A stretch of DNA of 64,000 bases from Escherichia coli (lineage in GTDB: Bacteria > Pseudomonadota > Gammaproteobacteria > Enterobacterales > Enterobacteriaceae): the NCBI RefSeq assembly GCF_013122565.1, contig NZ_CP053258.1; one strand, given 5' to 3'. The notes below the pieces were generated by a model. It ran no database searches, was not told the origin of the DNA, and worked only from the letters and a program-made list of their open reading frames with translations. The position numbers and the translations under genes were made by a program. This document shows positions 2,508 to 10,096 of this stretch, piece after piece (the first letter of the stretch is position 1; each line of letters begins with the position of its first letter).

Positions 2508-2820
2508 GCTACGCCTCTGTTAAAAATGTTAATCAATGTTAAGTGAGGTAACAATAGCAAACTTGTACGAAATATGTGTACAGAATGATAAATTAATTTT
2601 TTGCATTTAGTGCTAATGCATATAAAACAACAAGTTATGATAAAAAGTATTGCATCATTTAAATGACAACCTATACAAGAATTTTCGCCAACTCATCTTT
2701 AACTTTTTCCATTTTTTATCAATGTAAAGAAACAGTTATGTTTTGGTATTAAAAGAAAGACACCGGAAGAGATGTCTGTTACCGTCTTACTCTCGCCTCT
2801 CCCATTACACTGGACAGTTA
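2508..2820. promoter_or_regulatory. Divergent AT-rich promoter region for ycgZ operon and bluF; TGTAC-containing imperfect inverted repeat at about 2563-2583
   Basis: 312-bp AT-rich spacer between divergent starts; motif cTTGTACgaaatatgtGTACAg seen 56-76 nt upstream of the ycgZ start. Confidence 0.4.
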
Positions 2821-4032
2821 ATGCTTACCACCCTTATTTATCGTAGCCATATACGTGACGACGAACCTGTCAAAAAAATCGAAGAAATGGTTTCGATAGC
2901 AAATCGCAGGAACATGCAGTCTGACGTAACAGGGATCTTACTGTTTAATGGTTCTCATTTTTTCCAGCTTCTGGAAGGTCCGGAAGAACAGGTTAAAATG
3001 ATATATCGGGCTATATGCCAGGATCCACGGCACTATAATATTGTTGAGCTGCTGTGCGATTACGCGCCTGCTCGCCGTTTTGGCAAAGCGGGAATGGAAT
3101 TATTTGATTTGCGCCTGCACGAGCGAGATGATGTTTTACAGGCCGTATTCGACAAAGGCACATCAAAATTTCAGCTAACTTATGATGACAGAGCGCTACA
3201 ATTTTTTCGTACTTTTGTCCTTGCAACCGAACAATCAACCTATTTCGAGATCCCTGCCGAAGACTCCTGGCTTTTTATCGCTGACGGATCTGATAAAGCA
3301 CTTGATTCCTGTACCCTTTCACCAAATATAAACGACCACTTTGCTTTTCATCCTATTGTCGATCCCTTATCGCGGCGGATAATCGCTTTTGAAGCCATTG
3401 TGCAAAAAAATGAAGATAGCCCATCAGCTATAGAGGTTGGGCAGCGTAAAGACGGGGAAATCTACAAAGCGGATCTCAAAAGTAAGGCGCTTGCATTCGC
3501 GATGGCACACGCACTTGAGCTCGGTGATAAAATGATTTCAATCAATCTATTACCTATGACCCTGGTTAACGAACCTGACGCAGTCTCTTTTTTACTTGAT
3601 GAAATAAAGGCCAATGCTCTGGTGCCTGAACAAATCATCGTTGAATTTGCTGAAAGTGAAGTCATATCTCGGTTTGATGAGTTTGCAGAAGCGATTAAAT
3701 CGCTAAAGGCTGCTGGTATCAGTGTAGCAATTGATCATTTTGGCGCAGGTTTTGCCGGTTTGTTACTCCTGTCACGCTTCCAGCCTGACAGAATTAAAAT
3801 CAGTCAGGAATTGATTACCAATGTTCATAAAAGCGGGCCACGGCAGGCAATTATTCAGGCGATCATAAAATGCTGTACATCACTTGAAATTCAAGTCAGT
3901 GCTATGGGCGTGGCAACACCAGAAGAGTGGATGTGGCTTGAATCCGCAGGAATTGAGATGTTTCAGGGAGATCTGTTTGCTAAAGCTAAATTGAATGGTA
4001 TCCCTTCCATAGCGTGGCCAGAGAAAAAATAA
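2821..4032 (+). CDS. bluF: Blue-light sensing BLUF-EAL protein BluF (YcgF), anti-repressor of BluR
   Basis: ORF track 2743-4032; conserved start taken at internal ATG 2821 (MLTTLIYRSHIRDDEPVKKIEEMVSIANRR...), giving 403 aa. Confidence 0.9.
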   Translation: MLTTLIYRSHIRDDEPVKKIEEMVSIANRRNMQSDVTGILLFNGSHFFQLLEGPEEQVKMIYRAICQDPRHYNIVELLCDYAPARRFGKAGMELFDLRLHERDDVLQAVFDKGTSKFQLTYDDRALQFFRTFVLATEQSTYFEIPAEDSWLFIADGSDKALDSCTLSPNINDHFAFHPIVDPLSRRIIAFEAIVQKNEDSPSAIEVGQRKDGEIYKADLKSKALAFAMAHALELGDKMISINLLPMTLVNEPDAVSFLLDEIKANALVPEQIIVEFAESEVISRFDEFAEAIKSLKAAGISVAIDHFGAGFAGLLLLSRFQPDRIKISQELITNVHKSGPRQAIIQAIIKCCTSLEIQVSAMGVATPEEWMWLESAGIEMFQGDLFAKAKLNGIPSIAWPEKK

Positions 4033-4152
4033 TTTCCAGCATATTCTTTCACATGATTTCAGTAAATCATCGTGAAAATGAATACGTTATGTTTAAATTT
4101 AATCCACATTAAAAATAATGTTTCATCCAATTTAGCTGAAATCTTATTTATA

Positions 4153-4184
4153 CTTTGTACAATTTTAGCGTATATTGTACAAAG
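4153..4184. promoter_or_regulatory. Inverted repeat cTTTGTACAAt-N10-aTTGTACAAAg upstream of bluR; candidate MerR-family operator
   Basis: Two copies of the self-complementary octamer TTGTACAA 20 bp apart with 11-bp reverse-complementary arms, centred about 69 nt upstream of the bluR GTG start. Confidence 0.4.
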
Positions 4185-4236
4185 TATTATTGGGTCGTGT
4201 ACAGGCGACGGAGATTTGTGACCGCAAGGAGGAATT

Positions 4237-4968
4237 GTGGCTTATTACAGCATTGGTGATGTTGCTGAACGTTGCGGGATTAATCCTGTCACTCTCCGGG
4301 CCTGGCAACGCCGCTACGGTTTGTTAAAACCACAGCGCAGTGAAGGCGGACACCGACTCTTTGATGAAGAAGACATACAACGCATCGAAGAGATCAAGCG
4401 TTGGATAAGTAATGGCGTCCCTGTAGGCAAAGTTAAAGCATTACTGGAAACCACCAGCCAGGATACGGAAGATGACTGGAGCCGCCTGCAAGAAGAGATG
4501 ATGTCAATTCTTCGTATGGCTAATCCTGCCAAACTACGCGCGAGAATTATTTCACTGGGTCGAGAGTACCCAGTAGATCAATTGATTAATCATGTTTACC
4601 TTCCTGTTCGCCAGCGTCTCGTGCTTGATCACAACACCTCCCGCATTATGAGCAGTATGTTTGACGGCGCATTAATTGAATACGCAGCAGCCTCGCTTTT
4701 CGAAATGCGCCGTAAGCCCGGTAAAGAAGCCATTCTGATGGCGTGGAATGTTGAAGAGAGAGCCCGATTGTGGCTGGAAGCATGGCGTTTATCATTATCA
4801 GGATGGCACATTTCTGTTCTTGCTGATCCCATTGAATCGCCGCGCCCGGAACTGTTCCCAACGCAAACGTTGATTGTCTGGACAGGCATGGCACCAACGA
4901 GAAGGCAAAACGAACTTTTACAACACTGGGTTGAGCAAGGTTATAAAGTCATCTTTCATGCCCCCTAA
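4237..4968 (+). CDS. bluR: MerR-family transcriptional repressor BluR (YcgE)
   Basis: 243-aa [59 protein letters not shown]... with MerR-type N-terminal HTH; GTG start preceded by AAGGAGG. Confidence 0.9.
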
Positions 4969-5188
4969 TTTCACCTTTATCCCCGCCCCTTAGACAGAAT
5001 GTTATAATCTGAACCCACAACAGCGTTTGCACCGGAGCTGTTCCATTGCAAAATGCTCACCGCACAATTCAGGCAATCCCCCTTTCACACTTTGTATATA
5101 TCACAGCCAAAGGACAGACCAGATTGAAGTGGTAAAACCGATCGTGCACACTATGCAGTCTCACAACTAACAAGAGGTTATTATCCTG

Positions 5189-5593
5189 ATGGATCAGGTC
5201 GTTGTTTTTCAAAAGATGTTTGAGCAAGTGAGAAAAGACCAAAACTTTTCCTGGTTTTATTCAGAATTAAAACATCACCGTATTGCACATTACATTTATT
5301 ATCTGGCTACGGATAACATCAGAATTATTACTCACGATGACACGGTTTTGTTATTAAGAGGAACCAGGAACCTGTTAAAAGTTAGTACGACCAAGAATCC
5401 TGCCAAAATAAAAGAGGCCGCATTGCTTCATATTTGCGGAAAATCTACATTTCGGGAATACTGTTCAACACTGGCAGGCGCGGGCGTTTTCCGGTGGGTT
5501 ACTGATGTTAATCATAACAAACGCAGTTACTACGCCATTGATAATACGCTTTTATATATTGAAGATGTAGAAAATAATAAACCATTAATCTAG
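5189..5593 (+). CDS. ycgX: Uncharacterized protein YcgX (DUF1398 family)
   Basis: 134-aa ORF MDQVVVFQKMFEQVRKDQNFSWFYSELKHHRIAHYIYYLATDNIRIITHDD... Confidence 0.85.
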   Translation: MDQVVVFQKMFEQVRKDQNFSWFYSELKHHRIAHYIYYLATDNIRIITHDDTVLLLRGTRNLLKVSTTKNPAKIKEAALLHICGKSTFREYCSTLAGAGVFRWVTDVNHNKRSYYAIDNTLLYIEDVENNKPLI

Positions 5594-5804
5594 CTAAAGT
5601 TGGAAGCTTAAGAAATGCTTCATAATTCAGTAAGGCATTAGCATAATGGAACTAAAAGTGCAGAGACTATTCCTATAGATCTTATACTGCCTTTTTATTG
5701 CCATCCATAGATGTTCAGTAGACCAATACTATAAAATTGATATTGAAATGTGCTCCCTTGCTTATTGATACATTATTTTATACGGTTAGTTTTCCTCTAA
5801 AAAC

Positions 5805-5829
5805 AACGGGCGTGCTATACGCCTGTTTC
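5805..5829 (-). terminator. Hairpin aacgggcgtgctatacgcctgtttc, a 23/25-identical copy of the icd terminator hairpin, with no obvious upstream gene on its strand
   Basis: Compare 7097-7121; on the minus strand the hairpin is followed by a U-rich tract. Confidence 0.35.
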
Positions 5830-5972
5830 AAGGCTTAACTCATATGAATTTTTCTTTATTTTTCATCACGTTATAATTTTTAACCAGCAACGAATTATCC
5901 TTCACTATAAAGTTCAATAGTTGAGACCTTATCCTCATGTCATGCGTATATTCATCATAATGATCCTTAGAC

Positions 5973-5998
5973 AAAAAAAGCCAACCATGATGGTTGGC
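5973..5998 (-). terminator. Orphan intrinsic terminator-like hairpin (8-bp stem gccaacca/tggttggc) followed by a U7 run on the minus strand
   Basis: Plus strand reads aaaaaaa-gccaaccatgatggttggc; no annotated minus-strand gene upstream of it. Confidence 0.45.
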
Positions 5999-6220
5999 AA
6001 AGTGGCACAAAGTAGCATAAAGGCTATGCTTTAATTACAGGAGGTTCAGACATTTGAATGTATATCGTTTTATCTAAACAGAACTAAAACGAAGTGAATG
6101 ATTTCATTTTTTCACTAAATCTCATTTTGTTTAATCTCTGTTGAGATTCCTTGTTTTAAATTTTGCTTTATATAAACAATAGCTTTATTTTTTAAATTGA
6201 TTTTTAGGTAATATAGAAAA

Positions 6221-6475
6221 ATGCAAAATCAAGGAATGAATATCCAAAGCAAACTATACGCATATTTAAATAAATATGACACTCGTCTTACAGAAGAAAA
6301 AATTGCGATTGAGAAAGCCATTAGAGAGTTACATTTTAGCAGCGAGCATGTTGATAACAAGAAAATAATACTGAAGTTACTATCATTTTTATCATATACA
6401 GATGATGTTGTCGAAAAAGACATTATCAGAAATGCATTGGAAGTGGTTCTTCTTTTTACTTCCGATGATATTTAA
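6221..6475 (+). CDS. AriR/YmgB-family small protein, paralog of ariR
   Basis: 84-aa ORF; C-terminal half VDNKKIILKLLSFLSYTDDVVEKDIIRNALEVVLLFTSDDI aligns with Ari[42 protein letters not shown]; weak Shine-Dalgarno. Confidence 0.55.
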   Translation: MQNQGMNIQSKLYAYLNKYDTRLTEEKIAIEKAIRELHFSSEHVDNKKIILKLLSFLSYTDDVVEKDIIRNALEVVLLFTSDDI

Positions 6476-6717
6476 TTGAATTCATTAATTTTATTATCAT
6501 AATTATTTTCCGGACACTACATTTTTTACTTATGTTTAATAATAACCACTGCGAATGAGGGACGCACAGGTATATTTTTCTCACACCTGTGATGTAAAAA
6601 CACGATAAAATCCAAATAAAGAATAAAATTTGCGACCCCACCAGATGGATTGCATCACACATTATTATTCAAAATATTTATCAACATCATTAATAGCCGA
6701 AGGATAAGACATAACAA

Positions 6718-7041
6718 ATGAAGTGGATAGTAATTGACACGGTAATTCAACCTACATGCGGTATATCTTTTTCAGCCATATGGGGTGATATGAAAATGAT
6801 CGTCTGGTATCAATCTACTATATTTCTCCCTCCTGGCAGTATATTTAAACCGGTTAAATCTGGTATTATCTTTAAGGATAAAGAATACCCTATTACTATT
6901 TATAACATCGCACCATTCAACAAGGATTTATGGAGTTTACTCAAAAGCAGTCAAGAGTGTCCTCCAGGAGAAAGCAAAATAACAAATAAATGTTTTCATA
7001 ATAGTTGCATTATAAAAATATGCCCATATGGGCTCAAGTAA
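6718..7041 (+). CDS. iraM: Anti-adaptor protein IraM (stabilizes RpoS by inhibiting RssB)
   Basis: 107-aa [36 protein letters not shown]...ICPYGLK; size and sequence match IraM (YcgW). Confidence 0.85.
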
Positions 7042-7092
7042 AGGGTTTCATATAAATATGCTCGATATGCTATTAATAATACCTACATAAAT

Positions 7093-7121
7093 AAAAAAAC
7101 GGGCGTGTTATACGCCCGTTT
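7093..7121 (-). terminator. icd rho-independent terminator (9-bp perfect stem aaacgggcg/cgcccgttt followed by U-run on the minus strand)
   Basis: Located 23 nt downstream of the icd stop codon at 7144-7146. Confidence 0.7.
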
Positions 7122-7143
7122 CAATATTTAAAACATGGAGAGA

Positions 7144-8394
7144 TTACATGTTTTCGATGATCGCGTCACCAAACTCTGAACATTTGAGCAGCTTAGCGCC
7201 TTCCATCAGACGTTCGAAGTCATAAGTTACGGTCTTCGCGTTGATTGCGCCTTCCATACCTTTAACAATCAGGTCTGCGGCTTCAGTCCAGCCCATATGG
7301 CGTAACATCATCTCTGCGGAGAGAATAATAGAGCCTGGGTTAACTTTGTCCTGACCGGCATATTTCGGCGCAGTACCGTGGGTGGCTTCAAACAGGGCGC
7401 ATTCGTCACCGATGTTTGCGCCAGGGGCGATACCAATACCACCAACCTGCGCTGCCAGGGCGTCAGAAATGTAGTCACCGTTCAGGTTCATACAGGCGAT
7501 AACGTCGTATTCAGCCGGACGTAGCAGGATCTGTTGCAGGAACGCATCAGCGATCACGTCTTTAATGACGATCTCTTTGCCGGTGTTCGGGTTTTTAACT
7601 TTCAGCCACGGGCCGCCGTCGATCAGTTCACCGCCAAACTCTTCACGCGCCAGCTGGTAGCCCCAGTCTTTAAACGCGCCTTCGGTGAACTTCATGATGT
7701 TACCTTTGTGCACCAGGGTCACAGAGTCACGATCGTTAGCAATTGCGTATTCGATCGCTGCACGAACCAGACGTTTGGTGCCTTCTTCCGAACACGGCTT
7801 AATACCGATACCGCAATGTTCCGGGAAACGAATTTTCTTCACGCCCATCTCTTCACGCAGGAATTTAATCACTTTCTCGGCGTCGGCAGAGTCAGCTTTC
7901 CATTCGATACCCGCATAAATGTCTTCCGAGTTTTCACGGAAGATAACCATATCGGTCAGTTCAGGGTGTTTAACCGGGCTTGGAGTGCCCTGATAGTAAC
8001 GTACCGGACGCAGGCAGATGTAGAGATCCAGTTCCTGACGCAGGGCAACGTTCAGAGAGCGAATACCGCCACCTACTGGAGTGGTCAGCGGGCCTTTAAT
8101 GGCAACGCGATATTCACGAATCAGATCAAGGGTTTCAGCAGGCAGCCAGACATCCTGACCATAAACCTGTGTGGATTTTTCACCGGTGTAAATTTCCATC
8201 CAGGAGATTTTACGCTCGCCTTTATAGGCTTTCTCGACTGCAGCGTCGACCACTTTCAGCATGGCTGGGGTTACATCTACACCGATTCCATCACCTTCAA
8301 TGTAAGGGATAATCGGATTTTCAGGAACGTTGAGTTTGCCGTTTTGCAGGGTGATCTTCTTGCCTTGTGCCGGAACAACTACTTTACTTTCCAT
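7144..8394 (-). CDS. icd: Isocitrate dehydrogenase (NADP), intact
   Basis: 416-aa [49 protein letters not shown]...[13 protein letters not shown]; full length with the native C-terminus. Confidence 0.97.
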
Positions 8395-8565
8395 TCACCT
8401 CTCCTTCGAGCGCTACTGGTTTGCTCGTCTGCCACCACGTTGCATATGCGTTTGCGTCCTGCGATACGGATGCTTTAGAGCAATTTTTTGTTAATGATTT
8501 GTAATTGGCTTGTCAATACTACCCTATTGTTTGCCGTCATGAAAGATGCGCGTTATTAGGCTATA

Positions 8566-8712
8566 ATGCGGCAATTCATAATCTCTGAAAATACCATGCA
8601 AAAAACTTCTTTTAGACCAAAGACAGTATTTTCCCGACCTTCAAATAAAGTATTAAATATCAATTATTTACACCAGACTTTAAGCAATAAAAAAACCACC
8701 AGAGATAACTAA
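8566..8712 (+). pseudogene. Detached canonical rluE start: first 17 codons of RluE (MRQFIISENTMQKTSFR) fused to unrelated sequence, ending after 48 codons
   Basis: Translation of 8566-8712 gives MRQFIISENTMQKTSFRPKTVFSRPSNKVLNINYLHQTLSNKKTTRDN; the first 17 residues match the RluE N-terminus as I recall it for K-12; a TATAAT hexamer overlaps the ATG. Confidence 0.5.
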
Positions 8713-8854
8713 CAGGGTGCTATTTGGTCAAAATTTGACATTACTCGATTCAGCGACTAACTCACTTTGAGCACTATTGGGAAAATTATCAAAAGTCATG
8801 GTTGAAGCGACAAGCAACGAGTAAATTATGGCATCCACCCTTTTTGAGGTTCAC

Positions 8855-8947
8855 ATGAAACGCTTTGCACTGATAGCTGTGACACTCATTGCCTTTACTG
8901 GTTCTAGTTCTGCATCTGCTGCAACCGAAGAAATCAACTTCAAGTAA
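8855..8947 (+). CDS. Mini-ORF (30 aa) with a signal-peptide-like sequence: MKRFALIAVTLIAFTGSSSASAATEEINFK
   Basis: GAGG Shine-Dalgarno 5 nt upstream of ATG; hydrophobic core plus ASA-A cleavage-like motif; in the same frame as the next ORF but separated by TAA and TGA stops. Confidence 0.35.
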   Translation: MKRFALIAVTLIAFTGSSSASAATEEINFK

Positions 8948-8980
8948 CAGAAACACTATATAACAATGGAGTGTTGAAAA

Positions 8981-9430
8981 ATGGATACTACCGAAGAACG
9001 CAATGGAACATATTTCTACAGAGGACACCCGAACCTGTCCAAAATAGAACTACTCAACGTCATATTCCTTGAAGAATTCTGTAAGGAATTGGGGATTGAT
9101 TCGGTATCAGGTGCAGCAATCTTATCTGGTCAACCTTGGCTGGGTACAAGAGCGAAGCCGGAAGGGGCAACCCTGGGAACAAGTGTTGTCTCAAAGTATG
9201 CGCGTATACTGATGAGAGATGCACGCATGCCTTTTGGTATTTCTGTTCATACAACAGTGGGTGTAAGGATGCAGAAATCTAATAAGCTTGCTGCAATTAT
9301 CGCTCGTTGGGTCCCGTGGATTGGTTGGGCTTCACTGTCGATGAGTCTTTACAGGATTTCGACTCGTACCCAGGAAAAATACAATCTGATTGCCAAACCT
9401 CAAGACCGTATTAAGTGGACTTCCTTCTAA
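8981..9430 (+). CDS. Hypothetical protein (149 aa), unknown function, with a hydrophobic C-proximal segment; first gene of a two-gene overlapping module
   Basis: ORF MDTTEERNGTYFYRGHPNLSKIELLNVIFLEEFCKELG...LAAIIARWVPWIGWASLSMSLY...; its stop overlaps the start of the next ORF (TAATG); no family recognised. Confidence 0.6.
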   Translation: MDTTEERNGTYFYRGHPNLSKIELLNVIFLEEFCKELGIDSVSGAAILSGQPWLGTRAKPEGATLGTSVVSKYARILMRDARMPFGISVHTTVGVRMQKSNKLAAIIARWVPWIGWASLSMSLYRISTRTQEKYNLIAKPQDRIKWTSF

Positions 9431-9765
9431 TGGCGACAACAATCACAGACGAAGTTTTAGCACTGTTCCGTGATGAGATTCCAGGTTATCAGGATGATCA
9501 CGGGAAGGAAATTCCGTTAGAACTGGACTCTGATTTGTTCGACTATCCACGAGATGATTTAGAGGACGCTATACGGAAATACAAAGAGAGGTTTGGGATT
9601 AACCTGGATAATCTGGAATGGTCTTTGTACCTTCCGTGGGAGTCTGCACCATTGCTTCAACGATGGTTCAAGCTCAAGCGGGAAGAGGTAGAAACAACAC
9701 GTTTACCGTTAACTGTACGGATGTTTGCAGAATCAGCAGAAGCGGGAAAATGGCTGTATCAGTAG
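9430..9765 (+). CDS. Hypothetical small acidic protein (about 111 aa); possible immunity or antitoxin-like partner of the upstream ORF
   Basis: ORF track 9415-9765; likely start at ATG 9430 overlapping the upstream stop; sequence MATTITDEVLALFRDEIPGYQDDHGKEIPLELDSDLFDYPRDDLEDAIRKYKERFGINL... is rich in Asp/Glu. Confidence 0.6.
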   Translation: MATTITDEVLALFRDEIPGYQDDHGKEIPLELDSDLFDYPRDDLEDAIRKYKERFGINLDNLEWSLYLPWESAPLLQRWFKLKREEVETTRLPLTVRMFAESAEAGKWLYQ

Positions 9766-9772
9766 AATAAAA

Positions 9773-9795
9773 AAGAAGGCTGCGATGCCCTTCTT
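9773..9795 (+). terminator. Candidate stem-loop terminator after the two-gene module
   Basis: aagaagg-ctgcgatgc-ccttctt hairpin 8 nt after the stop codon; the U-tract is weak. Confidence 0.35.
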
Positions 9796-10096
9796 ATTAC
9801 TGCTGATGATGGTAGTGGTAAAGCATCATCCTGAACTTAAACAGTGAAGTGCTGTCACCCATCAGTAATACAGAAACACTATTTTCATACCAGTATTTAT
9901 TCAATTCATCAATGTAAAATGTGTTCATTGGGCCATATTTATCACCATGCAGCCACACAACCGCTGCTCACTAACCCAGGTATTGATGAAACCGCGCTGA
10001 AGAGCCTGAACCCTGAACCTCTAACGAGTACCTTCAAAGTCCAATGCAATCCGACACTGTGCTAACCTCTGCGTATAGCTCTATTTGGAATTTACC

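Follow-up and report, generated by a model that had tools for sequence, protein, structure and literature searches.

A decayed second copy of the icd terminator bounds the iraM block in Escherichia coli

We analyzed the region downstream of icd in a 64,000-nucleotide stretch of an Escherichia coli genome (assembly GCF_013122565.1, contig NZ_CP053258.1), referred to here as the window. Two similar terminator hairpins, designated H1 and H2, lie in direct orientation in this region and bracket a small AT-rich block that contains iraM, which encodes an anti-adaptor of RssB. The features of the locus are listed below with their positions in the window, the strand where one was assigned, and the basis of the assignment (ORF, open reading frame; aa, amino acids; nt, nucleotides).

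2743-4032 (+ strand coordinates): bluF
4237-4968 (+ strand coordinates): bluR
5189-5593, + strand: ycgX (DUF1398), the left neighbour of the structure; ORF with a Pfam match to DUF1398 (E 8e-48), named ycgX in related genomes
5641-5881: segment of 241 nt that comprises the ymgL remnant, the arm relic, H1 and 38 nt to its right and is missing from the EC42405 haplotype (alignment)
5646-5678, + strand: ymgL small-ORF remnant with a stop at codon 11, aligned to K-12 ymgL
5757-5804: probable relic of an attP arm of the e14 type, decayed and adjoining H1 on its left (arm alignment and shuffles)
5800-5843, - strand: H1, degraded copy of the icd terminator unit, with its hairpin at 5805-5829 and a minus-strand T-run
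5980-5998, - strand: second terminator-like hairpin in the block, GCCAACCATCATGGTTGGC followed by a T-run (-12.6 kcal/mol, z score -3.8)
5990-6034, + strand: ymgK small-ORF homologue, which aligns to K-12 ymgK (MFSKLAQSSIKAMF)
6221-6475, + strand: YmgB/AriR-family paralogue of 84 aa (ORF, Pfam, alignments)
6718-7041, + strand: iraM (RssB anti-adaptor), so named in related genomes
7093-7136, - strand: H2, working icd terminator unit, with its hairpin at 7096-7122 (repeat scan, fold)
7144-8394, - strand: icd, intact, 416 aa (ORF, alignment)
7302-7308: start of phage 21/e14 homology in icd (attB crossover region), unbroken here (phage matches, junction alignment)

The icd gene is a full 416-aa ORF on the minus strand, and its sequence is continuous through positions 7302-7308, where homology to phage 21 and e14 begins. 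The attachment site is therefore unoccupied, a state that is common and ordinary. Both e14 and phage 21 integrate into icd and duplicate its 3' end (Hill et al. 1989, as summarised in PMC6379469). Neither a second icd 3' fragment nor an intact e14- or phage-21-type arm motif was found in the 64-kb window. An earlier note on this DNA, made from its letters alone, had described icd as full length with its own terminator and had reported the absence of both an e14-type prophage and a duplicated icd 3' fragment, and these descriptions hold. The icd terminator is the stem-loop of H2 (7096-7122), which on the minus strand forms 11 pairs followed by a T-run (U7) with a folding energy of -18.1 kcal/mol and a z score of -6.2; the iraM transcript converges on it as well. 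The window is E. coli proper: a core segment nearby shows 95-99.6% identity with every one of the 5426 complete E. coli genomes, from which the genome counts below are drawn. The GC content, which the earlier note had proposed to compare, is 27-33% for the iraM block versus about 50% for icd.

The hairpins of H1, AACGGGCGTGCTATACGCCTGTTTC (5805-5829), and H2, AACGGGCGTGTTATACGCCCGTTTC (7098-7122), both read on the + strand, are identical at 23 of 25 positions. The near-copy that the earlier note had placed 1.3 kb from the icd terminator was thus confirmed, and the repeat proved to be longer than had been claimed, with 44 nt at 82% identity (5800-5843 versus 7093-7136) in direct orientation at a spacing of 1293. 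The version returned by blastn covers 32 nt at 90.6% (E 7e-7), and the K-12 alignment extends the repeat to approximately 50 nt if two single-base indels are allowed. About 8 nt separate the end of the repeat from the stop codon of icd. The hairpin match was absent from all 100 dinucleotide-preserving shuffles of the window. In alignments, H1 occupies the same position, between ymgL and ymgK, in UTME-7, AR_0019 and the K-12 strain, with H2 beside icd or icdC. The two-hairpin arrangement is the majority state of E. coli, K-12 included, and is not peculiar to this genome.

A scan of genome contigs for the hairpin yielded seven loci (a non-exhaustive set with no E. coli representative), and in each of them the canonical 23-mer AACGGGCGTGTTATACGCCCGTT lies directly 3' of icd in a single copy. 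These loci include E. albertii, E. whittamii, Escherichia sp. E1V33 and three Citrobacter genomes; the 23-mer of H2 is identical in E. albertii, E. whittamii, Citrobacter spp. and phage 21. The order of elements in phage 21 attP is int, three arm sites, the identical hairpin, the spacer and the last 165 nt of icd. Matches to the window were found in thirty phage records, 28 of them Escherichia phages, and the best matches extend from within icd to position 7091, the left edge of H2. In e14, a variant hairpin is followed by an arm of TGATAAC repeats. Given the organization of phage 21 attP, the position at which the phage matches end, and the hairpin of e14, the canonical hairpin is the outer end of a replacement "icd 3' cassette" of icd-targeting phages. 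Most hits in a scan of viral contigs for the hairpin pattern were predicted E. coli prophages whose limits extend too far, into H1-iraM-H2, and the scan was uninformative with regard to carriage of H1 by phages. In E. albertii NBRC 107761 (locus 3866-4560), a truncated phage-21-like integrase gene with one arm repeat left comes to within 43 nt of the icd terminator and is what remains of a prophage at icd.

The DNA directly left of H1 resembles a phage arm. The K-12 version of this flank matched the e14-like arm of a Citrobacter prophage at 41 of 55 positions, a similarity that none of 2000 shuffles reached; Citrobacter prophages and E. coli EC42405 both carry e14-type arms of this kind next to icd. 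The link that the earlier note had drawn to the integration hotspot at the icd 3' end is supported both by this flank and by the presence of the hairpin in phage 21 attP and approximately 28 other lambdoid phages.

The repeats also mark the limits of a presence/absence polymorphism. The iraM gene was present in 3936 of the 5426 genomes and missing from 1490 (about a quarter), with a single-hairpin junction in 1037 of those (approximately 19% of all genomes), including the B2 type strain ATCC 11775. Such a pangenome comparison of the icd downstream region had been suggested in the earlier note, and it places the boundaries of iraM presence and absence at the repeats. Strains ChlosBP-23-1 and 2/0 (urinary tract infection isolate) carry ycgX, ymgL, the left flank of H1, a single canonical hairpin and icdC, with no iraM; CT265 has the same order without iraM, but its single hairpin abuts an intact icd. 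An IS200C element is situated exactly at the left edge of this hairpin in CT265 (locus 3200-3930). In ChlosBP-23-1 and 2/0, a sit island is inserted at icd, with a phage-21-type junction sequence at icdC; sitABCD adjoins attP in phage 21. Manual counting on the alignment of K-12 with ChlosBP-23-1 revealed differences at only 1 of 66 positions in the flank versus 7 of 42 in the hairpin and spacer, and the junction therefore lies at the left edge of the hairpin.

We distinguished haplotype A, the long form found in the window and UTME-7; haplotype B, in which the AriR-like gene is deleted; and haplotype C, with a single hairpin and no iraM. In a 215-nt flank, A differed from B or C at 35-40 positions, one B sequence from another at 15, B from C at 12-17, and CT265 from other C flanks at 16-19. 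The C flanks thus group with B, and both A and B possess two hairpins and iraM. Given that the distant A haplotype also has both hairpins, parsimony favours loss over recent gain at this site. The pattern suggests that H1 and H2 recombined with each other in C strains, perhaps on several occasions, and that the iraM block was lost in this way. The suggestion of the earlier note that the block had been acquired or rearranged by recombination is only partly supported: the two-hairpin state is that of most E. coli, and the flanks favour loss in strains without iraM over recent gain here.

H1 itself shows signs of decay. Its minus-strand fold has an internal loop and an energy of -11.3 kcal/mol (z score -2.4), compared with -18.1 kcal/mol for H2, and the icd-sense folds of H1 in K-12 and AR_0019 have energies of -10.2 and -9.9 kcal/mol, respectively. 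As an intrinsic terminator H1 qualifies weakly, with five contiguous pairs and the tail CGUUGUUUUU. Manual reading of the alignment on the icd-sense strand showed that the stem mismatch differs in each of three H1 alleles, and a manual count put the difference between haplotypes at approximately 17% for H1, as for nearby non-coding DNA. Judged from these alignments, H1 appears to be drifting at about the neutral rate.

The earlier note had also stated that H1 has no gene to terminate. This statement is mostly right. The minus-strand ORF adjoining H1 (5840-6010) is frame-shifted in K-12 and AR_0019 and is ruled out by this non-conservation between strains as a gene terminated by H1. On the + strand, H1 comes after ycgX and the ymgL remnant, but with a poor U-tract. 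An Rfam scan of 4900-8700 gave nothing above any family threshold. No 3' end is listed in the Term-seq supplements of Adams et al. 2021, which cover K-12 under limited conditions, either at H1 (MG1655 12124xx-12125xx) or at H2/icdC (12115xx-12116xx). The second hairpin of the block (5980-5998) is well formed on the minus strand, with a T-run, and shares positions with the beginning of the ymgK ORF; the window, UTME-7 and EC42405 have it in intact form, K-12 and AR_0019 in degraded form.

A fourth haplotype was found in strain EC42405 (NZ_CP043414.1 2949178-2962000). The order from the left is ycgX, the ymgK region, an AriR-like gene and iraM with a different terminator of its own, followed by trkG, insertion sequence (IS) elements (IS100/IS5 fragments), a gene for a hypothetical protein of 455 aa, an e14-like arm, a canonical hairpin and icd. 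The e14-like arm beside the icd terminator is well preserved, and there is one canonical hairpin. A Pfam scan of the 455-aa product was uninformative. The EC42405 form looks like a less decayed version of an element between icd and ycgX, and the iraM block is compatible with being the remainder of an EC42405-like element. It also shows that the history of the region includes several deletions.

Taking these results together, we consider it probable, although by no means certain, that H1 is the stranded and decaying outer end of an earlier icd 3' cassette, a scar of past phage integrations at icd. Phages that target icd, such as e14 and phage 21, carry an attP cassette that rebuilds icd on integration. 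This cassette consists of the icd 3' end, the spacer, the terminator hairpin and then the arm sites. With every integration, the icd 3' end already in place is moved away from icd together with its terminator and arm. The first step of such a process is visible today in K-12, in which H2-icdC is displaced by e14, and in B2 strains, in which H-icdC is displaced by a phage-21-like sit prophage. An earlier terminator, still joined to a relic of an e14-type arm, may have been displaced in this manner by a later integration at icd. The intruding element would then have decayed to the 1.25-kb AT-rich block with the ymgK region, the AriR-like gene and iraM, and a deletion reaching to about 8 nt from its stop codon would have removed the displaced icd fragment. 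H1 would have ceased to terminate icd and drifted roughly neutrally, with the direct repeats H1 and H2 left as a substrate for recombination. A crossover at the left edge of the repeats would remove the iraM block and leave one canonical hairpin, as in approximately 19% of genomes. The repeat, its homology with attP cassettes, the arm-like flank of H1, its weak fold, and the exact boundaries and frequencies of the indel were observed directly; what we infer from them is how the events followed one another and that the indel arose by loss.

Several observations weigh against this origin. No remnant of the icd 3' end was found beside H1 (Smith-Waterman score of 16 for 5830-6060, versus a shuffle mean of 17.3), and a displaced cassette therefore needs an extra deletion. 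A shuffle-tested alignment of the left flank of H2 revealed no similarity to an e14-type arm, so that a second deletion is required there. The window's own H1 flank is only marginally arm-like, with 43 of 2000 shuffles reaching its similarity. The EC42405 haplotype is without the 241-nt segment that bears H1 (window 5641-5881), and its block directly abuts ycgX; the segment could therefore be a later insertion. The absence of 3' ends from the Term-seq data stems from K-12 grown in LB and M63, with the region poorly expressed there. Seven sequences and a parsimony argument, applied to a species that recombines, are the basis for the direction of the indel.

The main rival to a displaced cassette is integration at the terminator itself: a small element or phage with its own diverged hairpin would have integrated site-specifically at the left edge of the icd terminator, with a core around AAAACAACGG, so that the site was duplicated as attL and attR. 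On this view, B2 strains with their single hairpin would represent the site before insertion, and the iraM block would be the element in decayed form. Such an event would account for direct repeats that coincide with the exact indel boundaries and for single-hairpin genomes that resemble a clean empty site. It also fits the contrast of 1/66 with 7/42 between haplotype B and the single-hairpin type, which sets the junction at the hairpin's left edge, the single hairpin of all outgroup species, and the occurrence of the IraM family in phages elsewhere. However, neither the block nor the left flank of H2 contains an integrase or arm sites, an H1-type hairpin was found in no phage or viral contig except E. 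coli chromosomal predictions, and known icd-targeting integrases cross over approximately 165 nt within icd, away from the hairpin. Integration at the terminator is also disfavoured by the grouping of the flanks, given that those without iraM fall inside the diversity of type B while the distant A haplotype has both hairpins, which favours loss. We therefore regard it as unlikely, although it deserves more weight than the explanations that follow.

A second possibility, which we rate as clearly less probable, is that H1 is a functional terminator or insulator under selection, either ending ycgX-ymgL transcripts on the + strand or blocking minus-strand antisense or read-through transcription from the iraM block. 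The position of H1 is kept in all two-hairpin haplotypes despite local divergence of approximately 17%, and G-U pairs preserve the + strand stem in two of three alleles by manual reading, with a + strand fold of -13.1 kcal/mol. H1 also lies approximately 130 nt downstream of the ymgL remnant, and a scan calls a minus-strand terminator-like site there. Against such a role, the stem is weakened in every allele (z scores of -1.1 to -2.4, versus -6.2 for H2), substitutions are near the neutral rate, the minus-strand ORF next to it lacks conservation, the U-tract on the + strand (UUUCAAGG) is poor, the Term-seq supplements give no MG1655 3' end for H1, and H1 is dispensable in 1037 genomes and in EC42405.

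Slightly more doubtful still is the idea that H1 and H2 recurrently switch iraM on and off within populations: the block would be deleted repeatedly and possibly reinserted, with recombination possibly promoted by integrases of icd phages acting near the hairpin. If this were the case, the loss of iraM in B2 and other lineages would be programmed-looking, repeatable and tied to the traffic of icd phages, and the block so deleted would contain the RpoS-stabilising iraM; the contrasting case is a one-off deletion. Finally, that the two hairpins are unrelated terminators, alike by chance or convergence given the shared design of a GC-rich stem between an A-run and a T-run, is effectively refuted by the shuffles (0/100) together with the sharing of loop and spacer as well (23/25, 44 nt at 82%, approximately 50 nt in K-12), and every occurrence of the pattern in other genomes is linked to icd.

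The proposed displaced-cassette origin has partial parallels in known systems. It resembles the arrangement of e14 attL/attR and icdC in K-12 in that phage integration into the end of icd displaces the resident 3' end with its terminator, both of which persist as a relic next to iraM, and the phage supplies replacements. Unlike the e14/icdC case, H1 is degraded, is accompanied by no icd coding fragment, adjacent prophage or integrase, and lies one step further out than icdC/H2. Phage 21 attP shares a hairpin identical to H2 and a near-identical spacer, with phage/host homology stopping at the left edge of the hairpin, whereas its arm sites YYTTCCCCAAAA were not found beside H1 or H2 in the window, and the flank of H1 resembles the e14 type of arm. 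Islands of the tRNA/tmRNA type are flanked by direct repeats of the target gene 3' end and are lost by recombination between the repeats. The iraM block is similar to them in that a direct repeat derived from a gene end brackets AT-rich accessory genes and strains without the block have a single repeat; it differs in its size of approximately 1.25 kb, in the lack of an integrase, and in that the repeat is a terminator and not part of a gene.

Between H1 and H2 we found no integrase or prophage genes, only the ymgK homologue, the AriR-like gene and iraM. The product of the 84-aa ORF (6221-6475) is a member of the YmgB/AriR family, matching Pfam PF10798 with 57.8 bits (gathering score 22.3; E 1e-15), and shares 38% identity over 73 aa with the window's own AriR. 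An intact gene of this kind was detected in only 10 of the 5426 genomes, and the EC42405 haplotype carries an 86-aa allele with 75% identity. In most E. coli, alignment revealed a gap of approximately 430 bp in the AriR-like gene, with the upstream region, the ATG and the first 8-9 codons remaining; the K-12 remnant is unannotated, and the deletion fuses it to the iraM leader. Because the gap leaves these upstream parts in place, the long form is the older state and the K-12 form a deletion, with no acquisition in this strain. The earlier note was thus right that the hairpins bracket iraM and the AriR-like gene, and they prove to be exact indel boundaries; the gene is nevertheless not an extra one but one that most E. 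coli have deleted. No homologue of it was found in phage collections. K-12 ymgK was considered as a remnant of the AriR-like gene and rejected, given that it maps to 5990-6034. YmgL is a 36-aa protein detected in K-12 (VanOrsdel 2018, PMC6001520). The ymgL reading frame has a stop at codon 11 in the window and at codon 13 in UTME-7; these early stops indicate that ymgL is not conserved as a coding sequence across E. coli.

Homologues of IraM with 64.5% identity are present in Stx2 phages, and the homologue there is not accompanied by the same hairpin, its terminator being a different one. A precomputed annotation assigns IraM to Pfam PF11183 (PmrD); direct hmmscan searches with IraM of the window and of EC42405 gave no Pfam match even at E values up to 1. 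One paper places iraM "on the e14 prophage" (PMC4045071). In the K-12 annotation, e14 ends at 1211412 and H2 lies at 1211599-1211623. Given that e14 ends before H2 and that iraM is present in this e14-free window, iraM lies outside e14.

Two further observations concern the surrounding DNA. The non-coding DNA at 5640-6260 is 17-20% diverged from that of common E. coli, with far less divergence in its flanks (1-2% for ycgX and approximately 3% for iraM), and its best matches among the 5426 genomes are only approximately 94-95% identical, which suggests an old, rare haplotype or an import. On the other side of icd, the interval up to rluE (8395-10084) contains a gene pair encoding STM2901-family (8981-9430) and DUF1493 (9415-9765) proteins; the interval is only approximately 170 bp in K-12 and AR_0019, and the gene-pair insert is common to UTME-7.

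Searches of a limited literature library returned no description of H1 or of H1 as an indel boundary. The interpretation in terms of an integration hotspot was broadly right, and what does not survive is the strain-specific acquisition. We see nothing mechanistically new at this locus: it is a common, decaying integration scar that follows the known dynamics of prophage scars and has a modest population-genetic consequence. The two repeats nevertheless provide a structural reason for the absence of iraM from about a quarter of E. coli genomes and correct the statement that iraM resides on e14, placing it outside that prophage, in a block with a copy of the icd terminator at either end. A fourth gene of the YmgB/AriR family, intact in few strains, survives as a truncated remnant in common E. 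coli, including K-12, and the region downstream of icd may be viewed as layered scars left by one phage integration after another.

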